From a virus (Duplodnaviria > Heunggongvirae > Uroviricota > Caudoviricetes), in the IMG/VR virus record IMGVR_UViG_2737471844_000006: a stretch of DNA of 47,932 nt, one strand, 5' to 3'. The notes under the pieces are model-generated. The model was given only the letters and a program-made list of their open reading frames with translations, was not told where the DNA came from and made no database searches. The position numbers were made by a program, and so were the translations under genes. Shown here in pieces: positions 5,782 to 22,410 of this stretch (the first letter of the stretch is position 1; each line of letters begins with the position of its first letter).

Positions 5782-5855
5782 GTTTTTCTCCTTAATTAAG
5801 GTTGAGCGAATCCCTGCCATTGCTGGCATAAATTCAGTTTCGCATAGTCAGTTAA

Positions 5856-6026
5856 TTAAAGTTCGTGTGCCATCTGGTCTTTTTCGGCACAACTTTCACT
5901 ACAATATTTTTTCATTTCCGTCGTTGGGATAACTCCACGCATGAAATGAAGTGGTCTTTTAATACTTTTGCTTTCTTCAATTTCTTTATTGCAAAGGTGG
6001 TAAGCACATTTTATTTTCTTAGTCAT
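5856..6026 (-). CDS. ydaE: Zinc-binding small protein YdaE
   Basis: 56-aa ORF missing from the track (under 60 aa); [19 protein letters not shown]...CSESCAEKDQMAHEL with Cys pairs; ATG overlaps kilR stop (ATGA). Confidence 0.7.
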   Translation of the reverse strand: MTKKIKCAYHLCNKEIEESKSIKRPLHFMRGVIPTTEMKKYCSESCAEKDQMAHEL

Positions 6027-6247
6027 CACCATGACTCCGCCTTTACAGGTAAACCATCACGACCGAGGAAGACTTTAATCATGCAGTCAGTAATGCATGT
6101 TTTTGTGGTCAGGTTATGAATATAAAGTTTTCGCTTTTTAATATTGTTTGCCGAGGCAATATATGTCCGGCCTTCATGAAGAATATAGTCACCAGGAGTC
6201 ACACACTGACGTGGTATTTCATCAGTTCCGAAGTGATGTGCAATCAT
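6026..6247 (-). CDS. kilR: Cell division inhibitor KilR
   Basis: 73 aa from [21 protein letters not shown]..., matches KilR as recalled. Confidence 0.85.
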
Positions 6248-12620: not shown

Positions 12621-12648
12621 AAATAAAGCCTCCTAGGAGGCTTTGATT
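12621..12648. terminator. Bidirectional rho-independent terminator
   Basis: Perfect palindrome AAAGCCTCCTAGGAGGCTTT between convergent genes, T/A-rich on both sides; overlaps the MTase stop. Confidence 0.6.
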
Positions 12649-13673
12649 ATATTAAGCAAATGTTTTCCAATCGTTTCAGACATCTTCGGAGGGACCGCAT
12701 TTCCTATTTGACGAGCCCGAGATTGCAAAGAACCAATAAATTTATAATCCAAAGGAAATGTTTGTAGACACGCTGCTTCACGAACCGATATTGCTCGATT
12801 TTGTGTTGGATGTCCAAAACGTCCATTTGAATAGCTAATACAACGAGTTGTTAGTCCGCTGGCTGGTTTGTCCCAACTCAAACGTCCATATACGTCTGTA
12901 TGCCCTTTATGGTTACGATGGCATTCTAAAATCAATTCATCTGGCCAAAATTCTCGACTTCCACCTTCAGGAGTGCATTTTATTCTACGCAAATTAAGCT
13001 CTGATAAGCGTGCAGCTTCATGATCAGGAATACTATTATGCTTTTCTCCTGCTTCTATCTTCGGTAAATTAGCGATCCAGTCCTTTACTGTTGAATAGGG
13101 AGTATTTCCAACCCCATGTGTAGGAGAAGGCAATGCGACATAAAAATCCTTGGATGCAATGAGCACTAATCTTTCTCGCGTCTGTGGTACACCGTACCAC
13201 GCAGCTGGCATTACTTTATAATCTACACTATATCCCTTTGATGAAAGCATTTCTAAAAACATCATGAATGTTCCTTCATTTTTGTTAAACTTTTGCATTC
13301 CTGGCACGTTTTCAACAAAAATAAAATCAGGCATATAATGCTCTACAAAACGACTGAATTCCTTTAATAGATCTAATCGTGGATCATCATTTTTTTTATT
13401 TGAGTTTTGCTTAGAGTATGGTTGACAAGGCGCACATCCTGAAAAAAGAATGTAATCATTACGATGTTTTTTTACTAACTTGTTTATGGCATTGTTGTCG
13501 ATTAACCTAATGTCCGAGTTAATAAAAGCAGCCTGCGGGAAATTTGCACGAAATGAACTGGCTGCATCAACGTCGAAATCGAGGCCAAAAACAATATCCA
13601 TTCCAGCTTGATGGAAACCTTGGCTGGTTCCACCACAACCGGAAAAGAAGTCAAACACTTTGATTTTTTTCAT
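12633..13673 (-). CDS. DNA (cytosine-5)-methyltransferase
   Basis: C5-MTase motifs in order: FSGCGG (I), PCQ (IV), ENV (VI), QTRER (VIII), GNAVPP (X); start at ATG 13673 with GAGGG SD; low GC. Confidence 0.9.
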   Translation of the reverse strand: MKKIKVFDFFSGCGGTSQGFHQAGMDIVFGLDFDVDAASSFRANFPQAAFINSDIRLIDNNAINKLVKKHRNDYILFSGCAPCQPYSKQNSNKKNDDPRLDLLKEFSRFVEHYMPDFIFVENVPGMQKFNKNEGTFMMFLEMLSSKGYSVDYKVMPAAWYGVPQTRERLVLIASKDFYVALPSPTHGVGNTPYSTVKDWIANLPKIEAGEKHNSIPDHEAARLSELNLRRIKCTPEGGSREFWPDELILECHRNHKGHTDVYGRLSWDKPASGLTTRCISYSNGRFGHPTQNRAISVREAACLQTFPLDYKFIGSLQSRARQIGNAVPPKMSETIGKHLLNIIKAS

Positions 13674-13696
13674 TTTTCCCTCTGCATCCAGAATCA

Positions 13697-15526
13697 CTAC
13701 CTAATGATACCACGGTCAAGAGCCTGAGTAATTATTTTTCTTATTTTTATAAATTCAGGTAATTCATTTTTAAGTCTTGCGGTCATTATTTTTTGGATGC
13801 AAAAAATCTCCTCTGCATTTACTTCTTCTTTATCATACAGGTGTTGCGCTAATAATCTTATTTGATTCTTATACAGTTCTGGATCATTAGAACTCCAGGT
13901 CTGTGAATCAATTATTTCTTTTTCACTTGGCGTAATTGCCTTTTCAATGAGTAATTGTTCGGGAGTATCAAATGGTAAATACTGCACTTTATTGAATGCA
14001 TACTCAAGCACTTGCCTTTTGAGTCTATTAGATTCTTGTTCATTTTTTTTGCCATTACTACCACTGGCATTGATAATTAACTCGCAACCATAATATTTGC
14101 ACATTGTATTAACTAAATCAGCATCAGCAATTTCACTAATTCTTACTGGTTTTATTTTTTTGTTTTTATCACCATCAAGTAAAAACAAAATATCATTGCG
14201 TTCTACCACAGCGTAACTGGGAAGATGCTTGCTTAAAATGGTCTCCGAACCACCTGGTATATAACTTACACTAAATGATAAGCTTAATCTTTCATCATTT
14301 TTAATCGCTTTATCTATAATTGCTTTAGCTAATTTATCTTCTACAATTATTGTTTTCTTGTTAATATCATGTCCTAGCTCTATAAAAGCTTCATCCGGTG
14401 CTATATTTTGAACTATTTTAGCTGTTTCATTCTCTTCATCAAAAACAAATAATTTAATGGCATCTTTGGGAAGAGTGTTCACAATAACAGGAGAATGGGT
14501 TGATATTACCACTTGATGTTTTTTCTGCTCAACAATAGAGTACAGAACATCCATCATCCTTTTCTGTGCACCAGGGTGAAGTGAAACTTCTGGTTCGTCA
14601 AGAAGAATTAATGAATTAGGTTTGGCCGAATAAATATTGAGTATTAGTGAAACTATTGCAAATTCACCACTTCCAGCAAAAGCTTCTGTATAGTTCAACT
14701 TATCAGTTGAAAGTAAAGCGGTTCCTCCTCTGGTTCCAAATAACCGATGCTCAAGAAATTTAATGACTTTATATTTTTTCCCTAATATAAATGAGACGTG
14801 CTCAACTAGTTCTGGCGCCAAGGTTATATTTTTAACAATGGTTTCCGCCCCCCAAAGTCTTAAATTACTTAGCTTTTCATCAAAAGCTTTCTTTATATAT
14901 TTAGATTTGCTTCTGATATAGTCTTGCTTTGTAATTAATACACCACTCTTCTTCTTTCTTAATTTAAAATCAGAGTGATACATACATCTATCAAATGCAC
15001 TTATTTCCGATCTGAAATCTAGGAAAACCAATCCCTTCTTGATTTTTTTCCATCTGGTTGCATTACTATTAGCACCCAGATCATCCGAAATACTCTCCAT
15101 GTTATCACCAACAGATGGTCGACTTGTTTCCCAATAATCGATTGTTTTCTTGGTAGCATTGATACGCGCTTGGAGTATTTCAACTAAACGGCCATCAGCA
15201 TTTTTATATCCATATATATATCTAGGTTTAAGAGAACTGCCATCAGCAAGTTTTAGGTCAGGAAACTCATCTGTTTCAGTTGTGAACCAATAACGAGTTA
15301 TATTTTTACCATGTGGGCAACCAAATAGCGCTTTGATAACAGAACTTTTATTAGTTCCATTTTTTCCTACTAAAGCCGTTATAGGGAACTGAAAATCGAT
15401 CCTTGCATTCTGCTCTATATTTTTAAAGTATGGAAAACGGATATGTTGTATGAATGGTTCAAATTCACCGTTTTTTAACGCGCACTGGAGTGTTCGAATT
15501 ATGCTCTTGTATGCGGAAGTGCTCAT
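13697..15526 (-). CDS. OLD-family-like ABC ATPase with putative C-terminal TOPRIM nuclease region
   Basis: 609 aa; deviant Walker A LVGKNGTNKSS, Walker B LILLDEPEVSLHP, H-loop ISTHSP, then TIIVEDK and ILFLLDGD resembling TOPRIM Glu and DxD; low GC; MTase ATG follows 24 nt after its stop. Confidence 0.8.
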   Translation of the reverse strand: MSTSAYKSIIRTLQCALKNGEFEPFIQHIRFPYFKNIEQNARIDFQFPITALVGKNGTNKSSVIKALFGCPHGKNITRYWFTTETDEFPDLKLADGSSLKPRYIYGYKNADGRLVEILQARINATKKTIDYWETSRPSVGDNMESISDDLGANSNATRWKKIKKGLVFLDFRSEISAFDRCMYHSDFKLRKKKSGVLITKQDYIRSKSKYIKKAFDEKLSNLRLWGAETIVKNITLAPELVEHVSFILGKKYKVIKFLEHRLFGTRGGTALLSTDKLNYTEAFAGSGEFAIVSLILNIYSAKPNSLILLDEPEVSLHPGAQKRMMDVLYSIVEQKKHQVVISTHSPVIVNTLPKDAIKLFVFDEENETAKIVQNIAPDEAFIELGHDINKKTIIVEDKLAKAIIDKAIKNDERLSLSFSVSYIPGGSETILSKHLPSYAVVERNDILFLLDGDKNKKIKPVRISEIADADLVNTMCKYYGCELIINASGSNGKKNEQESNRLKRQVLEYAFNKVQYLPFDTPEQLLIEKAITPSEKEIIDSQTWSSNDPELYKNQIRLLAQHLYDKEEVNAEEIFCIQKIMTARLKNELPEFIKIRKIITQALDRGIIR

Positions 15527-15539
15527 TGTTTACTAAAGT

Positions 15540-15671
15540 CCATAATAGGCTAACAGGTTGAGGATGACATGATAGCGATTTTTAATGCAGATAAAAGAGG
15601 TTTGTTGGTTACCACACAACAGAAAAAGTGACCTTACCGCTTGAACGAAAGGTAAGGGTAAGTAGGCTGTG
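15540..15671 (+). promoter_or_regulatory. hok leader / presumed sok antisense region
   Basis: Inferred from hok-family architecture; individual elements not resolved; no obvious overlapping mok ORF. Confidence 0.3.
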
Positions 15672-15824
15672 ATGCAGCAAAAGACGATGTTAATCGCCCT
15701 GATTGTCATCTGTATTACCTTCGTTGTGATGGCACTGGTAACAAGGAAAGACTTCTGCGAGGTACAAATCCGAACCGGTCAGACGGAGGTCGCTGTCTTC
15801 ACAGCTTACGAACCTGAGGAGTGA
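15672..15824 (+). CDS. hok: Hok/Gef-family type I toxin
   Basis: 50-aa ORF not in track: MQQKTMLIALIVICITFVVMALVTRKDFCEVQIRTGQTEVAVFTAYEPEE, near-identical in pattern to HokD/RelF as recalled. Confidence 0.85.
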   Translation: MQQKTMLIALIVICITFVVMALVTRKDFCEVQIRTGQTEVAVFTAYEPEE

Positions 15825-15831
15825 GAGACCA

Positions 15832-15853
15832 GGCGAGGGAGAAATCCCTCGCC
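15832..15853 (+). other. Stable stem-loop after hok (GGCGAGGGA-GAAA-TCCCTCGCC)
   Basis: 9-bp perfect stem with GAAA tetraloop directly 3' of hok stop. Confidence 0.5.
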
Positions 15854-16290
15854 ACCTCTGATGAGTCAGGCATCCTCAACGCACCCGCACTTAACCAGCT
15901 TTGGCGGGTATATTTTATCTGTGAATATTTTTATAAAAATAATGCCCACGCACAGCATAAAACAAAAAGTATTACAGATAAAAAAGGAACGTAATGTGCA
16001 GATTTGTTGTTTTCCATATTTACTCACCTTAATATTATTAATCCTGATAGGGTTGTTATTTCAGCGGTTTTCAAATGAGATATTATGGTGATCTGGCAGA
16101 TTTGCATAACATTAAAATTTAATTTGTTTAACCGCTTTTAATAATAAGCGTTGTTTTTATCCCAGCAATCTGTTGTTTGGTTTTTATTCCATCAATGTGG
16201 GGGCTTTACACTGGAATCAGTTTATTTATACTTTATACGTCAGCCTGAACAACTGGCATCTGCTGCACTGCGCCATCGAGAGATTGAGAA

Positions 16291-16890
16291 ATGGCGCATA
16301 TACAACTGGTCAAACAAACCTCTTCTGGTTTACTTCTCCCGGCGACGCCGGAGAGTTGCGATTTTCTGCATCAAATCAAAATAGGTGAGTGGATACACGC
16401 AGACTTTAAGCGTGTGCGTAACTACGCATTCCACAAGCGTTTTTTCAAACTCCTGCAACTGGGATTCGATTACTGGACTCCGGTCGGTGGGGCGATCACG
16501 CCTCGCGAACGAGAACTGCTGTCTGGTTTCGTGGATTACCTGTGCGAATCAGTTGGTCGGGAACACACGCCAGCCCTGATTGATGCCGCGGAACAATATC
16601 TGAATACCGTTGCGACACGCAGAACCCAGGATATGGCATTGCTCAAATCATTTGACGCTTTCCGCGAGTGGGTAACCATTCAGGCCGGATTTTACACCGA
16701 GCATTTTTATCCTGATGGTAGTCGTGGGCGTCGGGCGAAATCCATCGCGTTTGCGAATATGGACGAAACCGAGTTTCAGCAGGTTTATAAATCTGTACTG
16801 AATGTGCTGTGGAACTGGATTCTGTTCCGTAAATTTTCCTCTCCGGAACAAGTCGAAAATGTGGCCGCGCAGCTACTGGAGTTTGCGTAA
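16291..16890 (+). CDS. nin-region phage protein (possibly NinB/Orf-like)
   Basis: 199-aa ORF heading a coupled operon before the Q gene; weak pattern similarity to lambda NinB only. Confidence 0.5.
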   Translation: MAHIQLVKQTSSGLLLPATPESCDFLHQIKIGEWIHADFKRVRNYAFHKRFFKLLQLGFDYWTPVGGAITPRERELLSGFVDYLCESVGREHTPALIDAAEQYLNTVATRRTQDMALLKSFDAFREWVTIQAGFYTEHFYPDGSRGRRAKSIAFANMDETEFQQVYKSVLNVLWNWILFRKFSSPEQVENVAAQLLEFA

Positions 16891-17180
16891 TGGTGGATTT
16901 ACGTAAAGCGGCGCGGGGCCAGATGTGCCAGGTCAGAATCCCTGGCTACTGCAATCACAATCCCGAAACTTCTGTGCTGGCGCATTACAGGTTGGCGGGA
17001 ACGTGCGGAACGGCGATAAAGCCACACGATATGCAGGCAGCGATTGCCTGTAGCTCGTGCCACGATTTAATCGACGGGCGGGTAAAAACAAGCGATTACA
17101 CCAAAGAAGAATTACGCCTGATGCATGCAGAAGGTGTTTTTCGCACGCAAGAAATCTGGAGAAAGGAAGGTTATTTATGA
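16890..17180 (+). CDS. Cys-rich nin-region protein (YbcO/DUF1364-like)
   Basis: 96-aa ORF with conserved Cys/His (CQVRIPGYCNH...CSSCHD); ATG overlaps upstream stop. Confidence 0.6.
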   Translation: MVDLRKAARGQMCQVRIPGYCNHNPETSVLAHYRLAGTCGTAIKPHDMQAAIACSSCHDLIDGRVKTSDYTKEELRLMHAEGVFRTQEIWRKEGYL

Positions 17181-17719
17181 TTTACCCAACAAATACAGGC
17201 AAAAGCGGGGAACACCTTCGTCTCACCACGCTGGAAAGTGTCTGGATTCAGGGAAAACTGCGCATGTGGGGGCGCTGGTCGTATATTGGCGGCGGTAAGA
17301 CGGGGAATATGTTCAACCAGTTGTTGGCCTCTAAAAAGCTGACAAAAACGGCAATTAACGAGGCGCTCCGGAGGATGAAAAAAGCAGGTCTGAACAAGTC
17401 TGAACTTGAGGCTTTTTTGCGGGATATGATTAACGGTAAGCAAAAGAGCTGTCTGGCGCATTGTACTGATGCAGAGGCGTTATGTATTGATCGGGTCATA
17501 AGTGAGGTGCTGGCAGAGCATCCAGGATTGATTAGCGTCCTTCGTCAACGGTATGAGGGGCGGGGGATGACCAAACGCAAAATGGCTGAATTGCTAAATG
17601 ATGCACACCCAGAGTGGTGTTTTAGCACATGCGAAAAACGGATTGCTAATTGGTTAGCTGTTGCTGAGTATGCCCTATATATTCACATGCGTGAATCATT
17701 TGCTGAGAAAATGGCTTGA
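17177..17719 (+). CDS. Late-gene antitermination protein Q-like
   Basis: 180 aa from ATG 17177 (ATGA overlap); position before a terminator and the lysis cassette; family assignment from memory. Confidence 0.6.
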   Translation: MIYPTNTGKSGEHLRLTTLESVWIQGKLRMWGRWSYIGGGKTGNMFNQLLASKKLTKTAINEALRRMKKAGLNKSELEAFLRDMINGKQKSCLAHCTDAEALCIDRVISEVLAEHPGLISVLRQRYEGRGMTKRKMAELLNDAHPEWCFSTCEKRIANWLAVAEYALYIHMRESFAEKMA

Positions 17720-17802
17720 TTTCTTACGTATAAACTGCTTCAATTTTGCTATGCTTCGCAAAGCTGTATCGCGAGGCGAACCAAGCGCATGAACTTTGAT
17801 AC

Positions 17803-17826
17803 AACCCGCCATTGAGCGGGTTTTTT
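17803..17826 (+). terminator. Rho-independent terminator (tR'-like)
   Basis: AACCCGC-CATTGA-GCGGGTT hairpin followed by TTTTTT, about 85 nt after Q stop. Confidence 0.6.
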
Positions 17827-17948
17827 ATGTCCGAAAAACGGCAGAGAACATAAAACGTGCTGGTGGTTGCTAATACTGGTCTTTCGGCTTGTATTTTTGT
17901 AAATCGATATATACTTATCTTGTGACCAGTAATGTCAGGGCAATTGAT

Positions 17949-18692
17949 ATGAATGAAGCCTGTTCTGTTGTTTTTGTTCATTCCCCGTTTGTTGTGCTCT
18001 TTGAAGGAAAAGAGCTCTCTCTTGAAAGTGGTAGTGCACTTCTTGTCAGGGGGGGAGCTGGATCGTTATTGCCCTTTTCGGAATGTTTTCGGCGAATAAG
18101 TCTCAGTGAATCGACAATTAGCCGTTACCTGTTGTGTGGAGACGAAAAACAGGATGTAGTTTTAGTCCGGCAAATACCACGATATCTTTGCGTGAGTTTT
18201 CCGAAGGCAGAATTGATGGGCATCCTGATTGATTATCTTTGTGAGGAAAAGATTCATACGGACAATTTAGCGGAAATGCTTTCCTTTTCGTGTCTGGCGT
18301 TTTTCTCATCAGAGAAGATGTTTTCGTCGTTTCTGACCGCGTGTATTAGCAATATTAGTGACAGGCTTAGTGCATTGTTTCGTACGGACATTGCAGCAAA
18401 CTGGACTCTGAGAGATGTGTCTTCGCGGTTATGTATCAGTGAAAGTTTGTTAAAAAAAAGACTGAAAGAAGAAGGCACCTGTTTCAGTGAGTTGTTGCTT
18501 ACAGAGAGAATGAGAATGGCAGCAATGCTGTTGAATCAATCTCGTTGCGCCATCAACAGAATCGCTGCTCAGTGCGGCTATAATTTTACATCTTATTTTA
18601 TCAGCGTATTCAGGAGTTATTTTGGTGTTACACCGGCAGGTTACAGGATGGCTGCATTCAATGAGATGAGTTTAAGTGTTACTCAAGAATAA
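17949..18692 (+). CDS. AraC-family transcriptional regulator
   Basis: 247 aa; C-terminal AraC-type double HTH (NWTLRDVSSRLCISESLLKKRL...INRIAAQCGYNFTSYFISVFRSYFGVTP). Confidence 0.8.
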   Translation: MNEACSVVFVHSPFVVLFEGKELSLESGSALLVRGGAGSLLPFSECFRRISLSESTISRYLLCGDEKQDVVLVRQIPRYLCVSFPKAELMGILIDYLCEEKIHTDNLAEMLSFSCLAFFSSEKMFSSFLTACISNISDRLSALFRTDIAANWTLRDVSSRLCISESLLKKRLKEEGTCFSELLLTERMRMAAMLLNQSRCAINRIAAQCGYNFTSYFISVFRSYFGVTPAGYRMAAFNEMSLSVTQE

Positions 18693-18867
18693 TTGAATTT
18701 TGCACTCATTGAAAACAGGCTCGCTGCGGCGGGCCTTTTTCATATCCGCGCCGCGCCCGGCGCACATCACATCAGATAACACCACACAAAAGGCATCTGC
18801 GGGTGCCTTTGACAGGGTGTTTTTACGGGCCGCTGGAGGCCCTTTTTTATTTGTGGGAGGAAAAAGC

Positions 18868-19260
18868 ATGTCTGAACCCTTATCCGGTTCCGGTACGGCT
18901 GTGGCGCTCGGCGGGGCGACGGTATTCGGGCTGTTTACCGGAACGGATTTCGGGATTGTGTTTGGTGCGTTCGCCGGGGCGTTATTTGTGGCAACGATGC
19001 CGCAGGCGCTTTCAGCCTGGCGTGTGGCGGCGCATTTTCTGGTGTCGTTCATTATCGGCGTGCTGGGCGCAGAGGTTCTGGCATCCTGGCTGGTAAAGCA
19101 TACAGGGTTTGACGGTGCGCCTGTCGACGCACTGTGTGCAGTGCTGGTGTCAGTGGTGTCGGTGAAGATTCTCTCGTTCATCCACCAGCAGGATATTGCA
19201 TCACTGGTGTCCGGCCTGTTCTCCCGTCTGCGGGGTGGAGGAGGCGGCAATGTTAAGTAA
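18868..19260 (+). CDS. Holin-like membrane protein
   Basis: 130 aa with Gly-rich transmembrane segments; GGGAGG SD; first gene of lysis cassette. Confidence 0.55.
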   Translation: MSEPLSGSGTAVALGGATVFGLFTGTDFGIVFGAFAGALFVATMPQALSAWRVAAHFLVSFIIGVLGAEVLASWLVKHTGFDGAPVDALCAVLVSVVSVKILSFIHQQDIASLVSGLFSRLRGGGGGNVK

Positions 19261-19525
19261 CCTTCCCGGATTGCTGAATGTAGCGTTATGCACGGTTATC
19301 GTGCTGACGCTCTTTTTTTATCGTCGCCGTGATTCCAGACATAAACCGCTGATGTCATGGCTGGCGTGGCTGCTGATGCTGCTGTATGCCTTTGCGCCCC
19401 TCAGCTATCTGTGTGGTCGCCCGTTAGCAACGGGCTGGCTGGAAGTGTTTTTTAACCTGCTGTTCTGCGTGCTGGTGATACGCGCACGCGGGAACGTCAC
19501 AAAAATCTTTCCATTGTTGAGGTGA
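19250..19525 (+). CDS. Small membrane protein (holin/antiholin-like)
   Basis: 91 aa with two hydrophobic helices; GGAGGAGG SD; overlaps previous gene. Confidence 0.5.
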   Translation: MLSNLPGLLNVALCTVIVLTLFFYRRRDSRHKPLMSWLAWLLMLLYAFAPLSYLCGRPLATGWLEVFFNLLFCVLVIRARGNVTKIFPLLR

Positions 19526-19527
19526 AT

Positions 19528-19905
19528 ATGTCGGGTAAATTCAGATTCAGCCGTCGCAGTGAAAAAAATCTGGAGGGCGTTAAACCACAGCTGGTTGCTG
19601 TCGTTCGCCGTGCGCTGGAGCTGACGGAGGTTGATTTCGGTATTACGGAAGGGCTGCGCACGAAAGAACGCCAGAAACAGCTGGTCGCGGAAGGGAAAAG
19701 CCAGACCATGAACAGCCGCCACCTGACCGGTGATGCGGTGGATGTTGTTGCCTGGGTTGGCAGCCAGGTGTCATGGGACTGGCCTCTGTACGAGAAAATC
19801 GCGCAGGCATTTAAGAAGGCTGCCGCAGAGCTGGGAACTGCCATCGAATGGGGCGGGGACTGGAAAACACTGAAAGACGGGCCTCACTTTCAGTTGAAAC
19901 GCTGA
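19528..19905 (+). CDS. Endolysin, peptidase M15 (L-alanyl-D-glutamate peptidase-like)
   Basis: SRHLTGDAVD and DW..H zinc-ligand pattern typical of VanY/M15 phage endolysins. Confidence 0.75.
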   Translation: MSGKFRFSRRSEKNLEGVKPQLVAVVRRALELTEVDFGITEGLRTKERQKQLVAEGKSQTMNSRHLTGDAVDVVAWVGSQVSWDWPLYEKIAQAFKKAAAELGTAIEWGGDWKTLKDGPHFQLKR

Positions 19906-20696: not shown

Positions 20697-21485
20697 ATGA
20701 GCGAGAAATTGAAGATCGTCTATCGCCCGTTGCAAAAACTGTCTCCGTATGCGCACAACGCCAGGACACACAGCCCTGAGCAGGTGGCACAACTGGTAGA
20801 AAGCATTAAGCAATTCGGCTGGACCAATCCGGTGCTGATTGACGAAAAGGGCGAAATTATTGCTGGTCACGGTCGCGTGATGGCGGCTGAGGTGCTCAAA
20901 ATGGATTCTGTTCCGGTCATTGTTCTGTCTGGCCTGACGGATGATCAGAAAAAGGCGTACCGCCTGGCAGATAATCGCCTGCCGCTCAACGCTGGCTGGG
21001 ATGAAGAACTGTTACGGGTGGAACTGTCGGAGCTAATCAATGCTGATTTTGATATCTCCCTGACAGGATTCAGCCCAACAGAAATTGATGAACTGTTGAT
21101 GGAAGTTTTGCCAGGTACCGGAAATGAGGAGGAGCAGTATACGACGAAAATTGATACGCCTGTTTATGAGCCGTCGGGCGATAAACCGGATATCAGTGAA
21201 CTGTACGACGATACGAAAACTCAGGAGCTGATCAGCCGGATACGTTCGGCGTCCCTTGAGCCTGATATCGAAAAATTCCTCCTGTGCGCGGCAGAACGCC
21301 ACACGGTGTTTAATTTCAGCAGAATTGCGGATTATTACGCTCACGCCCCCGCTGAAATTCAGCGCCTTTTTGAGGAGTCGGCGCTGGTGATCATTGATTA
21401 TCAGCAGGCTATTGAAAATGGATTTGTCCGGATGACGCAGCACATGGTGGAGATCATGCATGGCGGGGAGGAGGAATATGCGTGA
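20697..21485 (+). CDS. ParB-like nuclease domain protein
   Basis: N-terminal ParB/Srx-type motif (KLSPYAHNARTHS...GHGRVMAA). Confidence 0.75.
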   Translation: MSEKLKIVYRPLQKLSPYAHNARTHSPEQVAQLVESIKQFGWTNPVLIDEKGEIIAGHGRVMAAEVLKMDSVPVIVLSGLTDDQKKAYRLADNRLPLNAGWDEELLRVELSELINADFDISLTGFSPTEIDELLMEVLPGTGNEEEQYTTKIDTPVYEPSGDKPDISELYDDTKTQELISRIRSASLEPDIEKFLLCAAERHTVFNFSRIADYYAHAPAEIQRLFEESALVIIDYQQAIENGFVRMTQHMVEIMHGGEEEYA

Positions 21486-22410
21486 TGATTTTTGCGCCTT
21501 TATTCTGACTCACGGGCGACCGGACAAAGTTCTGACTTACCGGACGTTGCGTCGTGCTGGCTATACCGGGAAAATTTTTATCGTTGTTGATGATGAAGAT
21601 AAGACACGGCATCAGTACATAGTTGAATTTGGTGAACAGGTGCTGGTGTTTTCCAAAGCCGATATAGCCAGTCGTTTTGACGAAGCCGATAATTTCGGTG
21701 ATCGCCGCTCAATTTTTTACGCCCGTAATGCCTGTTTCGACCTGGCAAAACTGGTCGGGTGTAAATACTTCATTCAGCTCGATGATGATTATCACGAGTT
21801 CCAGTTTCGGGTGGATCGCAACTATGACCAGGCCTATTTCCCGATAAGAAAACTGGATGCGATCCTTTCTGAAATGCTGGCGTACTACGAATCAATACCT
21901 GCGCTTTCCATCGCTATGTCGCAGGGCGGGGATTTTCTTGGTGACAATGGCGGCCATGCTTCGTGGGTGAAACGCAAGGCAATGAACAGCTTTATCTGTT
22001 CGGTTGATCGACCGTTCTCATTCATGGGGCGCATTAACGAGGATGTGAATACGTACACGAATCTCGGTCGCTGTGGTGAATTGTTTATGACGATCGGTGC
22101 TGTCCAGTTAGGGCAGAAACAGACGCAGAAAAACAGCGGCGGAATGACCGAGCTGTATCTGGATTCCGGAACCTACGTTAAAAGTTTTTACTCCGTCATG
22201 TATGCGCCCTCGTGCGTAAAAATCTCACTGATGGGGGCCAGCCATAAACGCATTCACCATCAGGTCACTTGGAACAACGCTGCAGTAAAAATCCTTCACG
22301 AAAAATACAGGAAGAAGACACCCTGCATATCAATGGGGGTGACAAATGATTCCGTATTCGAAAGTCGAGTCTCTGGCAGCGTGCCGGATGACTGCACAAC
22401 AAATCGCTGA
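21478..22410 (+). CDS. Hypothetical protein with DxD motif (possible nucleotide-sugar transferase-like fold)
   Basis: 310 aa from ATG 21478 (GGAGGAGG SD, overlaps ParB-like stop); FIVVDDED and QLDDDY acidic motifs; function unknown. Confidence 0.45.
   Translation: MRDDFCAFILTHGRPDKVLTYRTLRRAGYTGKIFIVVDDEDKTRHQYIVEFGEQVLVFSKADIASRFDEADNFGDRRSIFYARNACFDLAKLVGCKYFIQLDDDYHEFQFRVDRNYDQAYFPIRKLDAILSEMLAYYESIPALSIAMSQGGDFLGDNGGHASWVKRKAMNSFICSVDRPFSFMGRINEDVNTYTNLGRCGELFMTIGAVQLGQKQTQKNSGGMTELYLDSGTYVKSFYSVMYAPSCVKISLMGASHKRIHHQVTWNNAAVKILHEKYRKKTPCISMGVTNDSVFESRVSGSVPDDCTTNR

Follow-up and report, generated by a model that had tools for sequence, protein, structure and literature searches.

In the 47,932-nucleotide (nt) virus sequence IMGVR_UViG_2737471844_000006 (hereafter the window, meaning this whole stretch; all coordinates of cassette and features are positions in it), the segment at approximately 17829–18717 is, on comparative sequence evidence, a moron: a mobile accessory cassette that consists of a leader and a gene for an AraC-type regulator and occupies the cargo slot between a Q-like antiterminator gene and the lysis genes. 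A moron is an accessory transcription unit in a lambdoid phage (Juhala et al. 2000, as cited in PMC4104026), and the insertion site of such units is located downstream of PR', the same site that holds stx2 (Tree et al. 2014, PMC4104026). As a whole, the window represents a complete, intact Rac-like lambdoid Escherichia coli prophage of about 48 kilobases (kb). The best explanation as a whole, which we regard as fairly probable, is that the cassette is a terminator-bracketed moron with its own promoter, the regulator of which would act in trans on host acid-resistance (GAD) genes.

The initial annotation had proposed, from the position of the gene, that the regulator is cargo in the slot between Q and the lysis genes. 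This proposal is borne out by the absence of the gene behind the same Q gene in other prophages, its lower G+C content, its recurrence behind three Q families, and the agreement with the described moron site. The DUF1133 Q gene and its downstream sequence, including the intrinsic terminator T1 at the left junction (Table 1), occur in approximately 1650 of the 5426 complete E. coli genomes surveyed, and the homology of those Q relatives that carry no AraC gene stops where T1 ends, at 17824–17828, or, in a second class, near 17778. The whole stretch from Q through the AraC gene to the holin gene is covered by only 14 of 1937 matching E. coli records. On the right side, homology with the AraC-less prophages RM13752 and CP61 restarts exactly at 18718, taken as the first base of the terminator T2. 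The slot in AraC-less relatives with the same nin/Q module has other contents, i.e., genes for tRNA-Thr and tRNA-Gly and a small open reading frame (ORF) in Ec-U7, and TolA-like genes in Combat13F7. The G+C content is 40–44% in the cassette, 47–53% in Q, and 55–61% in the holin region. Thus, the segment is present or absent at a module junction and deviates in base composition, as is characteristic of a moron. Since T1 and T2 are common to AraC-carrying and AraC-less phages, the two terminators look like recombination junctions, at which the cassette is probably exchanged. Regulation of neighboring phage genes by the AraC protein was also considered and was rejected because no neighbor travels with the gene.

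The fidelity of the gene to this slot should be noted. The same AraC gene (at least 91% nucleotide identity) is found behind three Pfam-distinct antiterminator families: DUF1133 in the window, NWU_3, and ZYB62; a PF03589 protein of 273 amino acids (aa), which belongs to the lambda Q family, in STEC307; and a 121-aa PF06530 protein in O139:H1 W13-16. Across the three contexts, the ORF is conserved together with T1 and the 120-nt leader, and usually with T2 as well. Of 47 IMG/VR loci carrying the gene, 45 have a recognizable upstream gene of the Q type, encoded on the same strand (21 DUF1133, 19 PF06530-type, and 5 lambda-Q-type, as assigned at several identity levels), and the same holin pair lies downstream in most of the loci that reach far enough. 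The order given by the initial annotation, in which the AraC gene precedes the holin gene, is the order observed in the window, where a second holin gene and an endolysin gene follow.

The regulator gene is an intact ORF of 247 aa, as first described. In the Pfam search, HTH_18 (50.9 bits; cut-off, 33.6) and HTH_AraC (50.0 bits; cut-off, 26.6) both match residues 158–233 above their gathering scores. The ATG at 17949 is backed by the N-terminal alignment with PatE, YdeO, GadW, and AppY, in which the motif M..CSV is found. Comparison with known prophage AraC regulators, named as a check with the initial annotation, shows homology to PatE, PsrA, and AppY. By blastp against the proteins translated from the K-12 and O157 Sakai genomes, residues 1–232 are 39, 37, 36, and 30% identical to PatE, YdeO, GadW, and AppY, respectively, and GadX is 40% identical in its C-terminal domain only. 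The identity to PsrA is 36% when PsrA is taken as a re-derived 237-aa ORF. The RefSeq start of psrA in Sakai (NC_002695.2; ECs_1087; 18678–19391 in our locus L006) is at an internal codon, giving 588 base pairs (bp) and 195 aa, and the ORF extends to an upstream ATG to give the 237-aa protein with the N-terminal M..CSV motif of the family. In a collection of 5.8 billion proteins, a tight group of relatives is found at 76–99% identity and none beyond this group exceeds 42%, and the phage records contain nothing closer than 40.5% identity to the AraC protein. Because the nearest neighbors outside the 76–99% group are at most 42% identical, the protein is, judging from these alignments, a distinct subfamily within the YdeO/GadW/PatE/Psr/AppY clade.

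The DNA-binding domain is 41–54% identical to those of the clade members. The first recognition helix, SESLLKK.LK, is near-invariant in the clade, and the second, SYFISVFR.YFG, is well conserved. The structure of the GadX DNA-binding domain (Protein Data Bank (PDB) entry 3MKL) is matched both in sequence (E = 1.7e-22) and in fold (template modeling (TM) score, 0.90).

The comparison with the porcine O139 allele, at 9% nucleotide divergence, gives a ratio of nonsynonymous to synonymous substitution rates (dN/dS) of 0.26, the N-terminal half being at 0.34 and the C-terminal half at 0.20, and most copies of the gene are full length. These values argue that the gene is under purifying selection and is not a pseudogene, a possibility that the initial annotation had raised. 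A decaying or silent passenger, without effect on host or phage transcription, would explain why several copies are damaged (C7, C3, and C41 at 742 nt, as well as L061 and L063, are frameshifted or truncated, and the protein cluster P0006 is only 158 aa long) and why the gene is rare. The low dN/dS over such a divergence, the predominance of full-length copies, and the conservation of the helix-turn-helix residues and the leader make this explanation very improbable.

The gene called Q in the initial annotation matches Pfam DUF1133 (PF06576) with 349 bits and also PF06530 with 26.5 bits, barely over the cut-off of 26. Its match in PHROGs is PHROG 753, ‘anti-termination protein Q-like’. In a phmmer search against PDB, the Q21 structures (6P18 and 6JNX) align with only 27 residues of the DUF1133 protein (residues 13–39) at a nonsignificant E value of 0.26. 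The label Q is reasonable from the position and the annotation of the gene, from which we infer the antiterminator role of its product. The terminator hairpin with a T-run, first placed about 85 nt after Q, is present and begins 83 nt past the stop codon. The stem of T1 (17803–17822) consists of 7 bp, 5 of which are G-C pairs, closes a 6-nt loop, and is followed by a T6 run to 17828. The folding energy is −11.2 kcal/mol (z = −2.6 versus shuffles). This hairpin lies 5' of the AraC gene in all contexts compared; the stem is kept and the loop varies.

The AACGAT motif of lambda serves as the sigma-70-dependent pause element at which Q engages. STEC307 has the sequence TTGATT-16 nt-TAAATT-cgccct-AACGAT-ggg right after the Q stop codon, which is comparable with PR' of phage lambda, TTGACT-17 nt-TAAATT-tgactc-AACGAT-ggg. 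T1 is located approximately 45 nt beyond this lambda-type PR'/AACGAT in STEC307 and corresponds to tR' by position, since it is the first terminator after PR' there. The position and the shared hairpin suggest that T1 would also be tR' in the DUF1133 context of the window. In that context, consensus and weight-matrix scans find no convincing sigma-70 promoter between Q and T1. A candidate for PR', TTGATT-17-TTCAAT at 17716–17744, was discarded for its chance-level weight-matrix score. The 83-nt stretch from the end of the DUF1133 gene to T1 (17720–17802) shows conservation across more than 1000 E. coli genomes. If PR' lies in these 83 nt, the terminated transcript would be approximately 60–75 nt long, a candidate short RNA like the PR' RNAs of other lambdoid phages.

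The leader of the AraC gene contains a −10-like hexamer, TATACT, that is invariant in all 33 loci that could be anchored. Its counterparts are found at nearly the same distance from the start codons of relatives, i.e., TATACT at −39 in patE, TATACT at −42 in the homologue of phage 1H12, and TATAAT at −41 in both psrA and the psrB-like gene. An own promoter is likely, because the position of this element is kept across four subfamilies, the related proteins of which are 36–39% identical. This promoter is therefore suggested by conservation and not by consensus strength, and it would fit dependence on an activator or RpoS. The expression of patE is higher in stationary phase, according to a review. 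An 8-codon mini-ORF right after T1 (17827–17853) was dropped, as it is not conserved in other contexts.

Three hairpins between the AraC gene and the holin gene are additional to the initial annotation. The first belongs to T2, which has a folding energy of −15.5 kcal/mol (z = −4.5) and is common to most cassette copies; the third belongs to another terminator, T3. The pre-holin region with the three hairpins (18718–18867) is common to AraC-less prophages, where it precedes either of two unrelated holin types, Phage_holin_8 or EssD. Terminators behind the AraC gene would be expected of a gene that is transcribed in lysogens, where the transcripts have to be kept from entering the lysis genes. 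Two of the three hairpins are also terminator-like on the minus strand, and sites of this type are reported to have convergent small RNAs (sRNAs) (Tree et al. 2014, PMC4104026). Over 17000–19400, the terminator scan finds 9 terminator-like sites, in comparison with 3.1 ± 1.7 in shuffles. An Rfam scan of 15500–19300 at E values up to 1 finds no known sRNA or leader family, giving only two sub-threshold chance matches (rsmX and Trp leader).

As to the function, lysogenic conversion via activation of the host GAD genes has, by analogy, a slightly better than even chance of being correct, since every characterized clade member acts on the GAD system. According to a review, PatE activates gadB, gadC, gadE, and hdeAB, PsrB attaches to the promoters of hdeA and gadE, and both Psr proteins exert repression on type III secretion by way of GadE and YhiF. 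At hdeA, PatE and PsrB bind the region from −132 to −45. Genes under direct activation by AppY are gadE, gadY, and nhaR. In the proposed mechanism, the regulator would combine a Rns/ToxT-like N-terminal regulatory domain with a GadX-like double helix-turn-helix domain and would act in trans on the host chromosome, at promoters rich in A+T within the acid fitness island (gadE, hdeAB, and gadBC), to raise the acid resistance of the lysogen. In strains carrying the enterocyte effacement locus (LEE), it may indirectly damp type III secretion. In the lysogen, transcription would start from the own weak promoter, probably in a stationary phase- or activator-dependent manner, and T2 and T3 would keep this transcription out of the holin gene. 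After induction, the Q-modified polymerase would also read through T1, the AraC gene, T2, and T3. As a separate observation, a chromosomal YdeO-like relative (P0014; 41% identical to YdeO; L068, 4001–4729) is located approximately 1 kb from an hdeA-family gene (5834–6094) in a non-phage context, which fits the link of the clade to acid resistance.

Several observations weigh against this explanation. The best NCBIfam model, YdeO, matches residues 2–230 with 148 bits, far below the cut-off of 348 for an equivalog, and the GadX model gives 98 bits versus a cut-off of 500; GadX, HilD, and others align to the C-terminal domain only. The overall identity to characterized regulators is only 28–39%, and that in the N-terminal domain is 16–31%, so the targets and signals could differ. 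The AlphaFold model, built from 9 sequences, has a mean predicted local distance difference test (pLDDT) score of 65.8, with values below 50 for residues 60–132. With regard to the promoter, the best sigma-70 pairing, TTGTAT-15-TATACT, combines a poor −35 hexamer with a spacer of 15 nt and scores 8.9, a chance level reached about once per kb, and the consensus promoter scan finds no promoter above threshold in the leader. T2 is degenerate in the porcine allele, which weakens the argument for insulation.

The position of the gene must also be considered with respect to late transcription, since the initial annotation had described the slot as one for cargo expressed under Q control. The positional part of this description stands: the gene lies downstream of T1, the tR' position, on the late-gene strand and 5' of the lysis genes, as Q-dependent late cargo does, with PR' itself seen in STEC307 only. 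Q control is probably not the main route, given the terminator bracketing and the conserved −10-like element. Read-through dependent on Q after induction is expected from the position, and it is less likely as a biologically important mode for a transcription factor. In a stricter form of this idea, the AraC gene would be a genuine late gene comparable to stx, lacking a promoter of its own, transcribed only by Q-dependent read-through of T1 after induction, and serving the lytic cycle, e.g., by reprogramming the host for phage production or by aiding the survival of released phage. The gene immediately adjoins the late operon on the same strand and is always found in the Q-to-holin slot; the STEC307 copy follows the lambda-type PR', its AACGAT pause element, and T1 within a short distance; and the leader lacks a consensus sigma-70 promoter, all of which would suit a late gene. 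However, a transcription factor that is produced within minutes of lysis would have hardly any time to take effect, and the relatives PatE, AppY, and PsrA act in lysogens, with patE and appY located outside late operons. The −10-like element kept in position across four subfamilies and the terminators right behind the gene are also difficult to reconcile with a late gene, which we thus consider unlikely.

The N-terminal domain gives rise to another possibility, that the regulator controls other acquired genes, such as H-NS-silenced fimbrial or adhesin operons, as Rns, CfaD, AggR, and ToxT do, with an N-terminal pocket that might sense fatty acids. In a fold search, the predicted model aligns along its full length with Rns, CsvR, and ToxT, with E values of about 1e-11 at TM scores of only 0.4, and a Rns/ToxT-like N-terminal fold is only suggestive, judging from the predicted model. 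Besides these matches, which are found in sequence as well as in fold, the low identity of the N-terminal domain to the GAD regulators and the frequent occurrence of the gene in porcine enterotoxigenic E. coli (ETEC), O139 strains, and livestock isolates agree with control of adhesins. Nonetheless, it is YdeO, PatE, and GadW, rather than Rns, that come out as the best full-length sequence relatives, the recognition helices hardly differ from those of regulators in the GAD clade, the cassette is not accompanied by fimbrial genes, and the model has low confidence in its N-terminal part. Control of adhesin operons is thus quite improbable in comparison with the action on GAD genes described above.

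The leader also contains a Chi site (GCTGGTGG), which is found at the same relative place 5' of psrA in Sakai Sp4 (L006, 18569–18576) and of the psrB-like gene in phiSTEC1575-Stx2k (L009, 4892–4899). The leader sequences around Chi are unrelated between the AraC gene, psrA, and the psrB-like gene. The window contains 8 Chi sites, in comparison with 1.3 expected, and 7 of the 8 are on the plus strand. Provided that the ends of the phage DNA lie close to the terminase genes, the leader Chi would be the first correctly oriented one for RecBCD entering from the lysis-gene end. A more elaborate reading is that the cassette is a portable unit of terminator, Chi, promoter, regulator, and terminator, in which Chi and the shared terminators drive RecBCD- or RecET-mediated exchange among phages with the three Q systems, and that the regulator, with a Rns/ToxT-like pocket, couples a gut signal, e.g., fatty acids, to the acid-resistance regulon or a H-NS-silenced regulon in livestock-adapted E. 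coli. We give this reading only a slim chance; if it is true, the gene would provide a distinct regulatory input and not a redundant copy of PatE or Psr.

The AraC gene is rare, being present in 65 of the 5426 complete E. coli genomes (about 1%), in all cases on the chromosome. Human isolates make up only 3 of the 40 rows listed; most of the isolates originate from farm environments, wildlife, cattle, pigs, or sheep meat. The strains are mostly livestock commensals, Shiga toxin-producing E. coli (STEC), or ETEC, and the carriers include STEC and porcine ETEC/O139 strains. No relative was found in the GTDB species-representative genomes scanned.

Table 1. Features of the AraC cassette and its surroundings in the window.
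Feature	Position	Strand	Remarks
Q-like late-gene antiterminator candidate (DUF1133)	17177–17719	+	Last gene of the nin-like region, directly 5' of the cassette/lysis region
Intrinsic terminator T1 (tR' by position), left cassette junction	17803–17828	+	Terminator scan, folding
120-nt leader travelling with the AraC gene	17829–17948	+	Conserved in three Q contexts
Chi	17859–17866	+	In the leader, between T1 and the AraC ATG
−10-like TATACT	17910–17915	+	39 nt before the AraC ATG
Weak Shine-Dalgarno AGGG	17937–17940	+	In the leader
AraC/XylS-family regulator, 247 aa, intact	17949–18692	+	HTH_18 and HTH_AraC; apparently own subfamily in the YdeO/GadW/PatE/Psr/AppY clade
Intrinsic terminator T2, right cassette junction	18717–18741 (hairpin 18717–18736)	+	24 nt past the AraC stop codon
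Conserved pre-holin leader	18742–18867	+	Hairpin 18789–18810; terminator T3 18827–18848 (hairpin 18827–18842)
Holin	18868–19260	+	Pfam Phage_holin_8
Second holin	19250–19525	+	Pfam Phage_holin_3_7
M15 endolysin	19528–19905	+	Pfam Peptidase_M15_4
Integrase	1–1236	−	Start of the prophage

The counterpart of the prophage in E. coli EC11 is 99.6% identical over the region studied and adjoins ttcA. The gene order of the EC11 element is intR-xisR-ralR-recT-recE-kilR-racR-ydaS-ydaT, followed by the replication genes, the nin-like region, and the lysis, terminase, head, and tail genes, and the cassette is inserted at the boundary of the nin-like region and the lysis cassette. The lysis cassette corresponds to PHROGs 198, 217, and 465. 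No tRNA genes were found within the window. The features were assigned by a terminator scan, RNA folding with z scores versus shuffles, Pfam at gathering scores, PHROGs, NCBIfam, blastp, and phmmer against PDB.

Other genes of the window also deserve mention. A low-G+C gene pair on the minus strand (12633–15526), located between the replication genes and a hok-like gene, encodes a C5 DNA methyltransferase (354 aa) and a 609-aa AAA_21/AAA_15 ATPase with PADLOC matches to HEC-04, ATPase-Toprim_I-B, AriA, and PtuA; the pair is a probable anti-phage defence moron. The Hok/Gef-type toxin ORF (15669–15824, plus strand, 51 aa, GTG start) is located just 5' of the nin-like region, and its EC11 counterpart is annotated as Hok/Gef. 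Between the lysis and terminase genes (20697–22410, plus strand), a 262-aa ParB/Srx-N-domain protein is followed by a 316-aa protein without a family match. For the former, PADLOC gives a match with the N-terminal portion of a model for type II methyltransferases, and its gene is truncated in EC11.

The AraC regulators of prophages, i.e., PsrA/PsrB, PatE, and AppY, are known for rewiring E. coli traits such as acid resistance, motility, biofilm formation, and type III secretion, and the gene described here adds an uncharacterized fourth or fifth subfamily. If it raises acid resistance, it may affect the gastric passage and persistence of livestock-associated E. coli. The cassette is also a clean example of a terminator-bracketed unit that moves among lambdoid phages with three unrelated antiterminators in the same slot, the general principle of which is already established.

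The closest parallel in arrangement is given by PsrA and PsrB, the prophage-encoded secretion regulators of O157:H7 (z1789/ECs1087 in Sp4 and z2104), which are AraC/XylS proteins of the YdeO/GadW clade encoded in lambdoid prophages, like the protein here. In Sakai Sp4, psrA is in the same slot, upstream of the lysis region, with the order Q, CAAX protease, small ORF, psrA, and ileZ-argN-argO; the psrB-like gene of phiSTEC1575-Stx2k is also in this slot, between Q and the tRNA genes with stx2. Both share with the AraC gene a terminator hairpin and Chi upstream and a −10 element approximately 41 nt before the ATG. The Psr proteins differ in sequence, PsrA being only 36% identical, and their genes are tied to effector-carrying prophages of LEE-positive strains with a PF06530 or PF03589 Q, whereas the AraC gene here is in a Rac-like prophage with a DUF1133 Q-like gene. 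The slot contains a third subfamily, the 1H12-type gene, between Q and holin in phage 1H12 and many related phages, and a fourth (P0012) directly after a lambda-type Q.

PatE (z0321/ECs0287 in CP-933H/Sp1; also in phages mEp332 and ev099) is the closest characterized homologue, with 39% identity over the full length and the same length of 247 aa. Its gene is likewise prophage cargo with TATACT 39 nt before the ATG, and its product activates gadE, gadBC, and hdeAB. Contrarily, patE is located at the tail-fiber/attachment end of the prophage and not in the Q-to-lysis slot. AppY, encoded by the DLP12 prophage of K-12, is likewise an AraC regulator of this clade and has gadE among the host genes that it activates directly, but it is 30% identical, and appY is at the right end of DLP12, adjoining ompT, with a very A+T-rich upstream region. 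YdeO and GadW are 36–37% identical over the full length, and the DNA-binding domains of YdeO, GadW, and GadX are 42–47% identical to that of the AraC protein, but the genes for these three are chromosomal core or acid-fitness-island genes. The stx genes and other morons at the PR'/Q site share the slot and the strand, past Q and the first terminator and before the holin gene. Unlike these, the cargo here is a transcription factor and not a toxin, has an apparent conserved promoter element of its own, and is directly followed by a terminator. The kind of gene and its placement in the slot are thus already exemplified by psrA and the psrB-like gene. What appears new, in comparison with the named members, is the subfamily, which may be among the ‘six additional Psr homologs’ of the review, together with its Rac-like/DUF1133 setting and its distribution.

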